Positions 5,014 through 16,775 of a DNA stretch of 37,729 nucleotides are shown piece by piece. This stretch comes from Escherichia coli (GTDB lineage Bacteria > Pseudomonadota > Gammaproteobacteria > Enterobacterales > Enterobacteriaceae). Below the pieces are notes generated by a model. The model was not told where the DNA came from. It did no database searches and saw only the letters and a list, made by a program, of their open reading frames with translations. The stretch lies in the NCBI RefSeq assembly GCF_003334405.1, contig NZ_QOWM01000026.1; one strand, 5' to 3'. A program made the translations under genes and the position numbers. The first letter of the stretch is position 1. The number at the start of each line of letters is the position of its first letter.

Positions 5014-7413
5014 ATGAAGCTAACCGATGCGGATAATGCCGCCGATGGCATTTTTTTCCCCGCCCTTGAGCAAAATATGATGGGTGCGGTGTTAATTAAC
5101 GAAAATGATGAAGTGATGTTTTTCAACCCCGCCGCAGAGAAGCTCTGGGGATACAAACGTGAAGAAGTCATTGGCAATAACATTGATATGCTGATTCCGC
5201 GGGATTTGCGTCCTGCGCATCCTGAATACATTCGTCACAACCGTGAAGGCGGTAAAGCGCGTGTTGAGGGGATGAGTCGGGAGCTGCAGCTGGAGAAAAA
5301 AGACGGCAGTAAAATCTGGACCCGTTTTGCGCTATCGAAAGTGAGCGCCGAGGGGAAAGTTTATTACCTGGCGCTGGTACGGGATGCCAGCGTAGAAATG
5401 GCGCAAAAAGAACAGACCCGACAATTGATTATTGCCGTTGACCATCTCGACCGACCGGTGATTGTCCTCGATCCGGAACGCCATATTGTGCAGTGCAATC
5501 GCGCATTTACCGAAATGTTTGGTTACTGCATTAGCGAAGCCAGCGGTATGCAGCCCGATACACTCCTGAACATTCCTGAATTCCCTGCCGATAACCGCAT
5601 TCGTTTACAACAGTTGCTATGGAAAACCGCCCGCGATCAGGACGAATTTCTGCTGTTGACGCGCACCGGTGAAAAAATCTGGATTAAAGCCTCTATCAGC
5701 CCGGTTTATGACGTGCTCGCGCATCTGCAGAACCTGGTAATGACTTTCTCGGATATCACCGAAGAACGGCAGATTCGCCAGCTTGAAGGCAATATTCTCG
5801 CCGCCATGTGCAGCAGCCCGCCATTTCATGAAATGGGGGAAATCATTTGTCGTAACATCGAATCTGTACTCAACGAATCGCATGTTTCGCTGTTCGCACT
5901 GCGCAACGGGATGCCGATACACTGGGCGTCATCTTCCCACGGTGCAGAAATTCAAAATGCGCAAAGCTGGTCAGCGACCATTCGTCAGCGTGATGGCGCG
6001 CCTGCGGGGATCCTGCAAATTAAAACCTCGTCAGGAGCAGAAACCAGCGCCTTTATCGAACGCGTGGCAGATATCAGCCAGCATATGGCCGCGCTGGCGC
6101 TGGAACAGGAAAAAAGCCGTCAGCATATTGAACAACTCATCCAATTTGATCCGATGACCGGTCTGCCAAATCGCAATAACCTGCACAATTACCTCGATGA
6201 CCTGGTCGACAAAGCCGTCTCTCCCGTGGTGTATCTCATCGGTGTTGACCATATTCAGGATGTGATTGATAGCCTTGGCTATGCGTGGGCCGATCAGGCA
6301 TTGCTGGAAGTGGTCAATCGCTTTCGTGAAAAACTCAAACCGGATCAGTATCTCTGTCGTATCGAAGGTACGCAGTTTGTCCTCGTGAGCCTCGAAAACG
6401 ACGTCAGTAACATTACCCAAATCGCCGATGAGCTACGGAATGTGGTCAGCAAGCCGATAATGATTGACGATAAACCCTTCCCGCTTACCTTGAGTATTGG
6501 CATCAGCTACGACCTGGGTAAAAACCGCGATTACTTGCTCTCCACTGCTCACAATGCAATGGATTATATTCGCAAGAATGGCGGTAACGGCTGGCAGTTC
6601 TTCAGCCCGGCGATGAACGAAATGGTAAAAGAGCGTTTGGTTTTAGGCGCAGCGCTGAAAGAAGCGATTAGCAATAACCAACTGAAACTGGTTTACCAGC
6701 CGCAAATCTTCGCAGAAACGGGTGAACTGTACGGCATCGAAGCCCTTGCTCGCTGGCACGATCCCCTGCATGGTCATGTGCCCCCTTCACGGTTTATTCC
6801 TCTCGCAGAAGAGATTGGTGAAATCGAAAATATTGGGCGCTGGGTCATCGCGGAAGCTTGCCGTCAGTTAGCAGAATGGCGTAGCCAGAATATTCATATC
6901 CCGGCGTTATCCGTGAACTTGTCGGCGCTGCACTTTCGCAGTAATCAACTGCCTAATCAGGTGTCTGATGCAATGCACGCCTGGGGTATTGACGGCCACC
7001 AGCTGACGGTAGAAATCACGGAAAGCATGATGATGGAACACGATACCGAAATCTTTAAGCGCATTCAGATCCTGCGTGATATGGGCGTGGGCTTATCGGT
7101 AGATGATTTTGGTACGGGCTTTTCCGGATTATCCCGCTTAGTCAGTCTTCCGGTAACGGAAATCAAAATTGACAAAAGTTTTGTCGATCGTTGTCTGACC
7201 GAAAAACGCATCCTTGCCTTACTTGAAGCCATTACCAGCATTGGGCAAAGCCTCAATTTAACCGTCGTGGCGGAAGGCGTCGAAACCAAAGAGCAATTTG
7301 AGATGCTACGCAAGATCCACTGTCGCGTTATTCAGGGATATTTCTTTTCCCGCCCCCTACCCGCCGAAGAAATTCCAGGCTGGATGAGCAGCGTGTTACC
7401 GCTGAAAATCTGA
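5014..7413 (+). CDS. dosP: heme-PAS oxygen-sensing c-di-GMP phosphodiesterase (PAS-PAS-GGDEF-EAL)
   Basis: ORF track 807 aa from ATG 4990; I place the start at ATG 5014 (MKLTDADNAADG..., 799 aa) because GAGG lies 5 nt upstream; EAL-domain motifs in C-terminal half. Confidence 0.9.
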   Translation: MKLTDADNAADGIFFPALEQNMMGAVLINENDEVMFFNPAAEKLWGYKREEVIGNNIDMLIPRDLRPAHPEYIRHNREGGKARVEGMSRELQLEKKDGSKIWTRFALSKVSAEGKVYYLALVRDASVEMAQKEQTRQLIIAVDHLDRPVIVLDPERHIVQCNRAFTEMFGYCISEASGMQPDTLLNIPEFPADNRIRLQQLLWKTARDQDEFLLLTRTGEKIWIKASISPVYDVLAHLQNLVMTFSDITEERQIRQLEGNILAAMCSSPPFHEMGEIICRNIESVLNESHVSLFALRNGMPIHWASSSHGAEIQNAQSWSATIRQRDGAPAGILQIKTSSGAETSAFIERVADISQHMAALALEQEKSRQHIEQLIQFDPMTGLPNRNNLHNYLDDLVDKAVSPVVYLIGVDHIQDVIDSLGYAWADQALLEVVNRFREKLKPDQYLCRIEGTQFVLVSLENDVSNITQIADELRNVVSKPIMIDDKPFPLTLSIGISYDLGKNRDYLLSTAHNAMDYIRKNGGNGWQFFSPAMNEMVKERLVLGAALKEAISNNQLKLVYQPQIFAETGELYGIEALARWHDPLHGHVPPSRFIPLAEEIGEIENIGRWVIAEACRQLAEWRSQNIHIPALSVNLSALHFRSNQLPNQVSDAMHAWGIDGHQLTVEITESMMMEHDTEIFKRIQILRDMGVGLSVDDFGTGFSGLSRLVSLPVTEIKIDKSFVDRCLTEKRILALLEAITSIGQSLNLTVVAEGVETKEQFEMLRKIHCRVIQGYFFSRPLPAEEIPGWMSSVLPLKI

Positions 7414-12716: not shown

Positions 12717-13635
12717 CACGTTATTAACGTTACGCGACGTCCATATCAATTTCCCGGCCCGTAAAAACTGGCTTGGTAAAACTACGGAACATGTTCATGC
12801 CATTAATGGTATTGATTTACAGATCCGCCGTGGTGAAACCTTAGGGATCGTCGGCGAGTCAGGCTGCGGCAAAAGCACCCTCGCACAGCTTTTAATGGGT
12901 ATGCTGCAACCGAGCCACGGGCAGTACATCCGTTCTGGCTCACAACGCATTATGCAGATGGTGTTTCAGGACCCGCTCTCTTCGCTTAATCCGCGCTTAC
13001 CGGTGTGGCGCATCATCACAGAACCGCTCTGGATAGCTAAGCGTAGTAGTGAACAACAGCGGCGAGCGTTGGCAGAGGAGTTGGCTGTGCAGGTGGGTAT
13101 TCGTCCGGAGTATCTCGACCGCCTGCCTCATGCGTTCTCCGGCGGGCAGCGGCAACGTATCGCCATTGCCAGAGCACTCTCTTCGCAGCCTGACGTGATT
13201 GTGCTTGATGAGCCAACCTCTGCGCTGGATATCTCCGTTCAGGCGCAGATCCTCAATTTACTGGTAACGCTACAGGAAAATCACGGGCTGACCTATGTGC
13301 TGATTTCACACAATGTCTCGGTGATACGTCATATGAGCGATCGGGTGGCGGTGATGTATCTCGGGCAGATTGTAGAACTGGGCGACGCGCAGCAGGTGCT
13401 GACGGCACCTGCACATCCATACACCCGATTATTGCTGGATTCCCTCCCCGCCATTGATAAACCGCTGGAGGAAGAATGGGCATTACGTAAAACGGATCTG
13501 CCGGGAAACCGCACGTTGCCGCAAGGCTGTTTTTTCTACGAACGTTGCCCGCTGGCAACCCACGGATGTGAAGTCCGGCAATCATTAGCAATAAGGGAGG
13601 ACGGACGTGAGCTCCGGTGCTGGCGGGCGCTGTAG
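12709..13635 (+). CDS. ddpF: ABC transporter ATP-binding protein
   Basis: ORF track 308 aa; GTG start with AGGAGG upstream; Walker A GESGCGKS; overlaps ddpD end. Confidence 0.92.
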   Translation: MSDTLLTLRDVHINFPARKNWLGKTTEHVHAINGIDLQIRRGETLGIVGESGCGKSTLAQLLMGMLQPSHGQYIRSGSQRIMQMVFQDPLSSLNPRLPVWRIITEPLWIAKRSSEQQRRALAEELAVQVGIRPEYLDRLPHAFSGGQRQRIAIARALSSQPDVIVLDEPTSALDISVQAQILNLLVTLQENHGLTYVLISHNVSVIRHMSDRVAVMYLGQIVELGDAQQVLTAPAHPYTRLLLDSLPAIDKPLEEEWALRKTDLPGNRTLPQGCFFYERCPLATHGCEVRQSLAIREDGRELRCWRAL

Positions 13636-13647
13636 AGATGCTAACAA

Positions 13648-13684
13648 CGCATCAGGCATTCACGCGCCTGACGCGTCATCCGGC
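13648..13684. repeat. REP-like palindromic element between convergent ddpF and osmC
   Basis: Imperfect hairpin cgcatcaggc / gcctgacgcg followed by tcatccggca, resembling the REP copies elsewhere in the window. Confidence 0.4.
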
Positions 13685-13690
13685 AATGCT

Positions 13691-14122
13691 TTACGATTTC
13701 AACTGGTAATCCAGCGTAATTTCCGCTTTCAGTACCTGAGAGACCGGGCATCCTGCTTTTGCTTTCTGGATTATGCCGTCAAAGGTAGAGGCATCAATAC
13801 CCGGCACCGCAACTTCACTCTTCAGTGCGATTTTCGTAATCGCAAAACCGGCATCCACTTTATCCAGCGACACATCGGCGGTGGTATCAATCGATGTTGG
13901 CGTGAATCCCGCTTCCCCCAGCATTAATGAAAGCGCCATTGAGAAACATGCGGCATGCGCTGCGCCAATCAGTTCTTCAGGGTTGGTTCCTTTTTCGCCT
14001 TCAAAACGCGTGTTAAATCCATACGGCTGTTGGTTCAGCACGCCACTCTCGGTGGATACTGTTCCCTTCCCGCGTTTGATATCGCCTTCCCAGTGTGCCT
14101 GACCTTTCTTATGGATTGTCAT
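13691..14122 (-). CDS. osmC: osmotically inducible peroxiredoxin (OsmC/Ohr family)
   Basis: ORF track 143 aa, recognised as OsmC. Confidence 0.95.
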   Translation of the reverse strand: MTIHKKGQAHWEGDIKRGKGTVSTESGVLNQQPYGFNTRFEGEKGTNPEELIGAAHAACFSMALSLMLGEAGFTPTSIDTTADVSLDKVDAGFAITKIALKSEVAVPGIDASTFDGIIQKAKAGCPVSQVLKAEITLDYQLKS

Positions 14123-14466
14123 TGTTGCTCTCCTGTGGGCTTAAAAAGGAAATTATAGACTACGTGAGAAACAGCACGAGGATAAGCAGGATATTCCGAA
14201 TAAAATCCGGCGAAAATATTACTTCTGCACTTAAATTAAATTCCCACAATAGATTACCGGGAATATATAACCCAAAAGATATTGTATCAATATTAATCGG
14301 ATCATACCAATCACAATCCCTATGAATATCATGGTGTTAAAATATAAAAATCATCAACCAGGACTAATCTTAACAACGAAGCGGCAAATATTTGCCATGC
14401 TGAATGTGCTTTATAAATCTGCGATCCGTAGCAGACACCATAAATACACAGACACGGAGAATCACT

Positions 14467-14682
14467 ATGTTTACTTATTATCAGGCAGAAAATTCAACAG
14501 CAGAACCCGCTCTGGTTAATGCCATTGAGCAAGGCCTTCGGGCACAGCATGGTGTTGTCACTGAAGATGACATTCTCATGGAGCTGACCAAATGGGTTGA
14601 AGCTTCTGATAACGACATCCTCAGTGATATCTACCAGCAAACGATCAATTATGTGGTCAGTGGCCAGCACCCTACGCTTTAA
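14467..14682 (+). CDS. bdm: biofilm-dependent modulation protein
   Basis: Within ORF track 14404..14682; start at ATG 14467 (MFTYYQAENSTAEP..., 71 aa) with GGAGA upstream. Confidence 0.85.
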   Translation: MFTYYQAENSTAEPALVNAIEQGLRAQHGVVTEDDILMELTKWVEASDNDILSDIYQQTINYVVSGQHPTL

Positions 14683-14783
14683 GGTGCTATGCTTGATCGG
14701 CAACCTAATTTAGGGGTTTAGCACGTGTTTCTTCGCTACGGCGATGTTGTCCTTAAAACTAGCTACAGGATTGAGGAGTTAAA

Positions 14784-14921
14784 ATGAAATCGAACCGTCA
14801 GGCACGTCATATTCTTGGACTGGACCATAAAATTTCTAACCAGCGCAAAATAGTTACCGAAGGTGACAAATCCAGCGTAGTAAATAACCCAACCGGCAGA
14901 AAACGCCCCGCTGAAAAGTAA
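14784..14921 (+). CDS. sra: stationary-phase-induced ribosome-associated protein (45 aa)
   Basis: Not in ORF track (too short); hand translation from ATG 14784 gives [49 protein letters not shown]; GAGGAG upstream. Confidence 0.85.
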
Positions 14922-14951
14922 TTCATAACCATCAGTCCTCAATGACGATTA

Positions 14952-14986
14952 AACACCATTGCCTGCGCAATGGTGTTTTTGTTTTT
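14952..14986 (+). terminator. rho-independent terminator after sra
   Basis: 10-bp stem aacaccattg / caatggtgtt, 6-nt loop, followed by TTTTTGTTTTT. Confidence 0.75.
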
Positions 14987-15077
14987 ATCTGCTTTATACT
15001 TGAGGCCGACGCCCTGGCGGTAAAGCAAAGACGATAAAAGCCCCCCAGGGATGGATATTCAAAAAAGAGTGAGTGAC

Positions 15078-16775
15078 ATGGAACCAAAAACAAAAAAACA
15101 GCGTTCGCTTTATATCCCTTACGCTGGCCCTGTACTGCTGGAATTTCCGTTGTTGAATAAAGGCAGTGCCTTCAGCATGGAAGAACGCCGTAACTTCAAC
15201 CTGCTGGGGTTACTGCCGGAAGTGGTCGAAACCATCGAAGAACAAGCGGAACGAGCATGGATCCAGTATCAGGGATTCAAAACCGAAATCGACAAACACA
15301 TCTACCTGCGTAACATCCAGGACACTAACGAAACCCTCTTCTACCGTCTGGTAAACAATCATCTTGATGAGATGATGCCTGTTATTTATACCCCAACCGT
15401 CGGCGCAGCCTGTGAGCGTTTTTCTGAGATCTACCGCCGTTCACGCGGCGTGTTTATCTCTTACCAGAACCGGCACAATATGGACGATATTCTGCAAAAC
15501 GTGCCGAACCATAATATTAAAGTGATTGTGGTGACTGACGGTGAACGCATTCTGGGGCTTGGTGACCAGGGCATCGGCGGGATGGGCATTCCGATCGGTA
15601 AACTGTCGCTCTATACCGCCTGTGGCGGCATCAGCCCGGCGTATACCCTTCCGGTGGTGCTGGATGTCGGAACGAACAACCAACAGCTGCTTAACGATCC
15701 GCTGTATATGGGCTGGCGTAATCCGCGTATCACTGACGACGAATACTATGAATTCGTTGATGAATTTATCCAGGCTGTGAAACAACGCTGGCCAGACGTG
15801 CTGTTGCAGTTTGAAGACTTTGCTCAAAAAAATGCGATGCCGTTACTTAACCGCTATCGCAATGAAATTTGTTCTTTTAACGATGACATTCAGGGCACTG
15901 CGGCGGTAACAGTCGGCACACTGATCGCAGCAAGCCGCGCGGCAGGTGGTCAGTTAAGCGAGAAAAAAATCGTCTTCCTTGGCGCAGGTTCAGCGGGATG
16001 CGGCATTGCCGAAATGATCATCTCCCAGACCCAGCGCGAAGGATTAAGCGAGGAAGCGGCGCGGCAGAAAGTCTTTATGGTCGATCGCTTTGGCTTGCTG
16101 ACTGACAAGATGCCGAACCTGCTGCCTTTCCAGACCAAACTGGTGCAGAAGCGCGAAAACCTCAGTGACTGGGATACCGACAGCGATGTGCTGTCACTGC
16201 TGGATGTGGTGCGCAATGTAAAACCAGATATTCTGATTGGCGTCTCAGGACAGACCGGGCTGTTTACGGAAGAGATCATCCGTGAGATGCATAAACACTG
16301 TCCGCGTCCGATCGTGATGCCGCTGTCTAACCCGACGTCACGCGTGGAAGCCACACCGCAGGACATTATCGCCTGGACCGAAGGTAACGCGCTGGTCGCC
16401 ACGGGCAGCCCGTTTAATCCAGTGGTATGGAAAGATAAAATCTACCCTATCGCCCAGTGTAACAACGCCTTTATTTTCCCGGGCATCGGCCTGGGTGTTA
16501 TTGCTTCCGGCGCGTCACGTATCACCGATGAGATGCTGATGTCGGCAAGTGAAACGCTGGCGCAGTATTCACCATTGGTGCTGAACGGCGAAGGTATGGT
16601 ACTGCCGGAACTGAAAGATATTCAGAAAGTCTCCCGCGCAATTGCGTTTGCGGTTGGCAAAATGGCGCAGCAGCAAGGCGTGGCGGTGAAAACCTCTGCC
16701 GAAGCCCTGCAACAGGCCATTGACGATAATTTCTGGCAAGCCGAATACCGCGACTACCGCCGTACCTCCATCTAA
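15078..16775 (+). CDS. maeA: NAD-dependent malic enzyme
   Basis: ORF track 574 aa from 15051; I use ATG 15078 ([14 protein letters not shown]..., 565 aa), the N-terminus I recall for MaeA/SfcA; start choice is uncertain by 9 codons. Confidence 0.9.

Follow-up and report, generated by a model that had tools for sequence, protein, structure and literature searches.

The window (the whole stretch of 37,729 nucleotides of DNA analyzed here) is E. coli K-12, and its segment 13600–15000 has a match in 5,414 of the 5,426 complete E. coli genomes. The annotation there begins with ddpF and continues with osmC, which is on the minus strand, followed by bdm, sra and maeA. The osmC–bdm spacer, which shows no difference from MG1655 (MG1655 positions are obtained as 1,570,747 minus the window coordinate), comprises 344 bp (14123–14466) and has a G+C content of 36% versus 50% for the window; the annotation and this composition confirm the original prediction of a divergent osmC/bdm pair around an AT-rich spacer. 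A check on the sequence also placed all three strings flagged in that prediction exactly at the positions given for them, and the distance of about 70 bp from motif to start codon proved correct for both genes. The features of the locus are collected in Table 1. The central part of the spacer is poorly kept even among Escherichia, and both its length and its content vary. The corresponding spacer of Salmonella, where bdm is named yddX, is longer than that of E. coli by approximately 170–190 bp, amounting to about 515–519 bp in the arizonae and diarizonae loci. An Rfam scan of 13600–15100 returned no relevant match. A 19-nt inverted repeat (14106–14124 and 14308–14326, 84% complementary) pairs sequence around the start codon of osmC with a stretch halfway along the spacer; by a rough estimate it is at the margin of chance, and it is not conserved in other Escherichia.

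Table 1. Genes and regulatory features of the osmC–bdm locus (window coordinates; arrows give the direction of reading on the minus strand)
Feature	Position	Strand	Basis
osmC coding sequence, peroxiredoxin OsmC, 143 aa	13691..14122	minus	ORF and RefSeq annotation
osmCp2 core, sigma-S type –10 TCTATAAT	14142..14159 (–10: 14159→14152)	minus	published start at about 14142
osmCp1 core promoter	14150..14185	minus	start 14150; probable –10 TAGTCT 14162→14157; probable –35 TTATCC 14185→14180
osmCp1 RcsB box TCGGAATATCCTGC	14186..14199 (14199→14186)	minus	consensus fit, position –49..–36, conservation, literature
Variable central spacer between the promoter modules, 28% G+C	14200..14357		composition, conservation
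bdm RcsB box CAGGACTAATCTTA	14359..14372	plus	consensus fit, 40-species conservation, start-site geometry
Perfect palindrome GGCAAATATTTGCC, its own reverse complement, 7+7	14383..14396		direct sequence check
Predicted bdm extended –10: TG 14393–94, C, hexamer CATGCT 14396–14401	14393..14401	plus	inferred; conservation
Implied bdm transcription start, MG1655 1,556,340, 60-nt leader	14407..14408	plus	reporter primer; G14408 invariant
bdm coding sequence, 71 aa	14467..14682	plus	ORF list and annotation

RcsB boxes were scored with the consensus TN(G/A)GAN4TC(T/C)NA and its low-affinity variant TN(G/A)GAN4(A/C)CTNA (Huesa et al. 2021). Sites with at most one mismatch to the consensus are not enriched in the window (20 matches versus 36 expected), and the consensus and the variant together give three matches in the spacer versus 1.3 expected (P = 0.14). 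Perfect palindromes of at least 14 bp occur four times in the window, versus 2.7 expected from simulations, and the probability of finding one in the spacer alone is about 0.034. As a string match alone, none of the flagged motifs exceeds chance; the strings being unremarkable, the functional claim must rest on position, conservation and published experiments. Motif scoring, the check proposed with the original prediction, recovered both boxes with one mismatch each (bdm to the main consensus, osmC to the variant) and revealed no enrichment. The third consensus match in the spacer (14297–14310) is not kept even within Escherichia and was treated as a chance occurrence. We also discarded promoter-like matches on the minus strand at 14290–14262 and 14310–14281, which fall in poorly conserved sequence (two found versus 1.7 expected). 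Among the other palindromes of the window, CCATTTCATGAAATGG (5821–5836) is a perfect 16-mer and one of the two longest, and the perfect palindromes AAATAATATTATTT (24403–24416) and GTCATTTATAAATGAC (24468–24483) lie less than 80 bp apart in an AT-rich stretch which, upon coordinate conversion, corresponds to the 3' end of yddG and the yddL–yddG spacer.

On the osmC side, the published start sites allow the flagged motif to be placed in a promoter. Table S1 of Kim et al. 2012 contains a start site of osmC, 28 nt before the ATG, with a 51-nt upstream string; in the window this string corresponds to 14200→14150 (minus strand), so that the start falls at 14150. With respect to this start, TAGTCT is found at –12..–7 and TTATCC at –35..–30, separated by a spacer of 17 bp, and from this spacing we infer that they are the –10 and –35 hexamers of osmCp1. 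The RcsB box TCGGAATATCCTGC occupies –49..–36 and abuts the –35 hexamer TTATCC; it deviates from the variant TNRGAN4(A/C)CTNA at one position and from the main consensus at two. The string GGATATTCCGA (14189–14199), which had been flagged as RcsB-box-like, is the complement of positions –49..–39 of this box. A second osmC start is given in the supplement of Mendoza-Vargas et al. 2009 at –20, with the –10 sequence 'gtagTCTATAATttcc'; osmCp1 lies 8 bp upstream of this promoter, osmCp2. The –10 element of osmCp2 reads CTATAATT in Escherichia and CTATACTT in the other genera (jointly CTATAMTT) and is kept in 19/19 aligned upstream regions. H-NS and Lrp act on osmC as well, and the RcsB box and the NhaR site of osmCp1 have reportedly been described. 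In the literature, RcsB is stated to activate osmC, which is also regulated by RpoS, and the RcsB and NhaR sites of osmCp1 are stated to overlap.

Both attributes originally assigned to osmC are supported: the RcsB-box-like string belongs to a box at –49..–36 of a mapped promoter of a gene under RcsB control, and RpoS responsiveness agrees with a –10 element invariant in 19 genomes as well as with the RpoS regulation cited in the literature. The geometry at osmCp1 fits the published RcsB/NhaR site, which has the same location and sequence here, the spacer being identical to that of MG1655; we detected no difference between the two. In the osmC upstream alignment, the box and the osmCp1 hexamers are conserved in 6/6 Escherichia lineages sampled and unrecognizable in Citrobacter, Salmonella, Intestinirhabdus, Leclercia and Silvania; to judge from this alignment, the osmCp1 RcsB/NhaR module appears to be confined to Escherichia. 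A natural E. coli variant, T14194A, falls into the unconstrained N4 of the osmC box.

On the bdm side, the flagged string GGACTAATCTTAAC (14361–14374), whose reverse complement is GTTAAGATTAGTCC, overlaps the box CAGGACTAATCTTA (14359–14372), the original coordinates starting and ending 2 bp further right than the 14-bp register of the consensus. This box deviates from TN(G/A)GAN4TC(T/C)NA only by a C for T at position 1. We analyzed its conservation in 40 loci, one genome per species, by aligning the 160 bp upstream of the bdm start codon, and found no indel across 14358–14413 in nearly all species. Invariant in 40/40 species are C14358, A14360, G14362, A14363, T14368, C14369, T14370 and A14372, which form the GGA-N4-TCT-N-A skeleton of an RcsB box; position 14361 (consensus position 3) is G or A, both of which the consensus allows. 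The N4 is variable (55–90% conserved), while the half-sites are invariant, and several Enterobacter species possess a perfect consensus box, CTAAGATGAATCTGA. The module is retained in genera without osmC within 2 kb, and in E. cloacae the entire spacer upstream of bdm measures only 140 bp. The RcsB box and the extended –10 described below make up a compact module, which is conserved in no fewer than 40 species of enterobacteria irrespective of the gene upstream. An RcsB box in the bdm promoter has reportedly been described; gene and regulator are the same here, and the literature states that RcsB regulates (activates) bdm.

The start site of bdm is missing from the start lists of Kim et al. 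2012, which give osmC and sra, and of Mendoza-Vargas et al. 2009, which give only osmC; the data of Adams et al. 2021 comprise just 3' ends, and those of Cho et al. 2014 just expression values. Pourciau et al. 2023 constructed a bdm-lacZ transcriptional fusion with a CsrA-regulated signal, the reverse primer of which anneals to 14385–14407, and state in their Methods that such promoter fragments extend to the transcriptional start site. By this rule of primer design, bdm transcription would begin at 14407 or at G14408; G14408 is invariant, and 14407 is a T, an unusual base for +1. Counted from 14407, the start of this later reporter study, the RcsB box is located at –48..–35, so that the second RcsB-box-like motif of the original prediction coincides with a box at the expected promoter position of a gene whose RcsB control is found in the literature. 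Conversely, if the box is placed at –49..–36, geometry alone predicts +1 at 14408 and a CATGCT –10 hexamer preceded by TG. T14393, G14394, A14397 and T14401 are invariant in 40/40 species and correspond to the TG, A–11 and T–7 of an extended –10 element, as which we read TGcCATGCT; this reading and the 40-species conservation were worked out in the present study. No consensus hexamer is present at the –35 position (14373–78), as is usual where an activator and an extended –10 drive transcription. The same reading would explain why a sigma-70 scan found no plus-strand promoter in the region.

Several other readings of this region were rejected. TATAAA (14412–17) as the –10 of the main bdm promoter, combined with TTGCCA as its –35, would leave a spacer of only 14 bp, and the active fusion ends at 14407, upstream of TATAAA. 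In a comparison by eye, the conserved block TTTGCCATkCTGAAT misses a sigma-54 site by one position of spacing, offers sigma-E a TCTGA-like –10 without GGAACTT, resembles the GCCGTAA of sigma-28 with the wrong spacing, and fits none of the CRP, Cra and RcsAB boxes. A TAnnnT hexamer (14412–14417, TATAAA in E. coli) with invariant T14412 and A14413 lies just downstream of the bdm start; it could serve a further promoter of bdm, from which transcription would begin at around 14424, or reflect a constraint on the initially transcribed sequence. The 60-nt bdm leader showed no significant fold (z = –0.17). An in-frame ATG at 14404–14406, which precedes the annotated start codon of bdm by 63 nt, would give an ORF of 92 aa; since this ATG precedes the transcription start at 14407, the annotated start of the 71-aa protein stands.

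The palindrome GGCAAATATTTGCC covers –24..–11 of the bdm promoter, i.e. spacer and extended –10, and thus lies inside the core promoter and is not transcribed. Its two arms differ in the 40 species: in the right arm, ATTTGCC, the TTTG is invariant and the CC near-invariant; in the left arm the GGC is 45–68% conserved, and the majority base differs from that of E. coli at two of the three positions. Three outer pairs separate a true dyad from an A-tract beside TTTG; of the 40 species, 18, 17 and 6 show complementarity at them, the lowest count belonging to the C–G pair. Full 7/7 symmetry is found only in the window, in E. coli strain E69 and in two other Escherichia lineages, and it is broken in E. 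whittamii and in another lineage (L006). Some Enterobacter carry inverted repeats of the form GGCAAA-N4-TTTGCC or CGCAAA-N4-TTTGCG. Between lineages the left arm floats by 2 bp against a fixed right arm; therefore there is no fixed dyad axis, and the element is ill-suited to serve as a fixed dimer site. Among 5,404 E. coli genomes, 4,489 (83%) share an identical 74-bp segment of the bdm promoter, which includes the palindrome. The substitution G14383A, the commonest variant found and that of the one sampled non-identical genome, occurs in 567 of some 5,400 complete genomes, in which the outer pair is lost; it accounts for at most 567 of the 915 non-identical 74-bp segments. In sigma-54 promoters the second G of the GG is separated by 11 bp from the G of the GC; tested against the patterns GG-N10-GC (–24/–12) and TGGCAC-N5-TTGCA, GGCAAATATTTGCC falls one position below this, the distance being 10 whichever strand is read. 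Most likely, GGCAAATATTTGCC is plain promoter sequence with a fortuitous symmetry, and we conclude that this symmetry is probably a by-product of a conserved promoter element beside an A-rich spacer. The original prediction was right that the palindrome is perfect and located at 14383–14396; the operator role suggested for it is at odds with the conservation of the right arm only and with the polymorphism of the symmetry. In the E. coli strain MB51 an IS1A is inserted at 14386/14387, within the left arm of the palindrome, and lies between the RcsB box and the core promoter of bdm, which makes this strain a natural promoter-disruption mutant.

We therefore consider it very probable that osmC and bdm are served by two separate, back-to-back RcsB-activated promoter modules and that the palindrome is no operator of its own. 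The two start sites lie 257 bp apart and the box centers 173 bp apart. At either promoter, the RcsB box is a 14-bp pseudo-palindrome centered at about –42 and set directly against the –35 position of a weak core, where a dimer of phosphorylated RcsB would recruit or stabilize RNA polymerase in the manner of a class-II-type activator. On the osmC side, the distal osmCp1 overlaps an NhaR site according to the literature and lies upstream of the sigma-S-type osmCp2; the bdm promoter, with no recognizable –35, would rely on the extended –10 (TGcCATGCT). The right arm of the palindrome would then be this extended –10, and its left arm a lineage-specific sequence that may mirror the right arm by chance. 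This mode of activation by RcsB is probable at both promoters. The arrangement of the RcsB box at rprA is alike. In the literature, RcsB homodimer sites are usually located just upstream of the –35, and at the RcsB-activated ytfK of Salmonella the box occupies –50..–36 (Huesa et al. 2021), a position comparable to those of the osmC and bdm boxes. Of the candidate operator sites initially proposed, the two RcsB boxes hold, as sites already known, and the palindrome is not supported. Publications dating from 2001–2005 onward report that RcsB controls osmCp1 and bdm, and both are textbook Rcs-activated promoters; this control is thus already known and was rediscovered here from sequence alone, and beyond this confirmation the locus matters little.

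With respect to the homodimer consensus of Huesa et al. 2021, the bdm box has one mismatch and the osmC box one mismatch to the lower-affinity variant. The RcsAB box TaAGaatatTCctA (Wehland and Bernhard 2000), from which the 'core' GAATATTCC used in the original prediction derives, has AGA/GGA...TCC/TCT half-sites in common with both; RcsAB boxes, however, bind RcsA-RcsB heterodimers and are typically found further upstream, at capsule genes, whereas both sites described here occupy the homodimer position next to the –35. In Salmonella SL1344, a search with a strict pattern (Huesa et al. 2021) assigned to osmC/yddX a box in the middle of the spacer, TGAGATTTATCCTA, 269 nt from yddX. In arizonae this box is degenerate, and diarizonae lacks it. 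A conserved CAGGACTAATCTTA box, which begins with C and was not reported in that study, is present in Salmonella approximately 90–103 nt upstream of the yddX ATG. A scan with the strict consensus has thus reported the non-conserved mid-spacer box and not the conserved C-initial one.

Alternative explanations concern both the boxes and the palindrome. The RcsB-like motifs could be chance matches in AT-rich DNA, devoid of any regulatory role, and the low information content of the consensus, with the 20 versus 36 expected matches in the window and P = 0.14 for the spacer, agrees with this. It is contradicted by the invariance of the bdm half-sites in 40 species, by the equal placement of both boxes relative to independently reported start sites, and by the published RcsB control of both genes, for which footprints and half-site mutagenesis are reportedly already in print; mere coincidence is thus very unlikely. 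Alternatively, one RcsB operator common to osmC and bdm, or a DNA loop that joins their boxes, might run both genes as one bidirectional unit. Both genes are Rcs-responsive in the literature, both boxes reside in one spacer, and the predicted box of Salmonella SL1344 has been assigned to osmC and yddX together. Yet with centers 173 bp apart each box abuts its own –35, the bdm box and promoter are kept in genera without adjacent osmC, the osmC box is confined to Escherichia, the intervening sequence varies in content and length, and neither arizonae nor diarizonae conserves the box found in the mid-spacer of SL1344. Given these findings, we also hold joint control to be highly improbable and prefer two separate modules.

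For the palindrome, one alternative is an operator for a dimeric factor, e.g. a repressor of the LacI/PurR type blocking RNA polymerase at bdm in E. coli. It would account for a perfect 7+7 dyad within the core promoter, for which the chance in the spacer alone is about 3%, and it is compatible with the identity of the 74-bp segment in 83% of the complete E. coli genomes and with the related inverted repeats, differing in their spacer, of some Enterobacter. Both the arm sequence and the 12-bp core spacing are shared with PurR/LacI operators (GCAAA-CG-TTTGC), but the center is TA and not the CG that PurR needs, and the left arm is unconserved, so that this is a resemblance only. We found no evidence of PurR control of bdm and no described site matching GGCAAATATTTGCC, a full-text search of the literature for the motif strings yielded only unrelated papers, and to our knowledge no factor is known for this palindrome. 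In the window, four such palindromes stand against 2.7 expected; conservation is limited to the right arm, where the TG..A...T signature of the promoter accounts for it; no more than 18, 17 and 6 of the 40 species have complementary bases at the outer pairs; the left arm shifts by 2 bp among lineages; and the symmetry is broken in E. whittamii, in lineage L006 and in the 567 genomes with G14383A. We consequently regard such an operator as very improbable, and likewise its narrower version, a recently evolved, Escherichia-specific operator for a dimeric repressor which, bound across the bdm spacer and –10, would gate the activation by RcsB. The symmetry could alternatively reflect a hairpin, either a DNA cruciform or a weak minus-strand terminator, and a simple scan indeed marks a terminator-like site on the minus strand (14397–14382). 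As single-stranded DNA, however, the region folds weakly (about –4.6 to –4.9 kcal/mol, z of about –1.3), into a short AT-rich stem that is equaled by about 10% of shuffled sequences, the tail CTTCGTTGTT is a poor T-run, and the bdm mRNA, which begins downstream of the site, does not contain it; with such a hairpin, tail and position no intrinsic terminator was recognized at the palindrome. We know of no minus-strand transcript that ends there, and we consider the hairpin extremely unlikely. Promoter DNA with fortuitous symmetry thus stays the preferred reading of GGCAAATATTTGCC.

According to the literature, sra, downstream of bdm, is also transcribed from the bdm promoter, bdm and sra being co-transcribed, and Kim et al. 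2012 additionally list a start site of sra inside the 3' end of bdm. Adams et al. 2021 reported an 'orphan' RNA 3' end at MG1655 position 1,555,999 (minus strand), which corresponds to window positions of about 14748–14758, in the bdm–sra spacer and upstream of the sra start codon.
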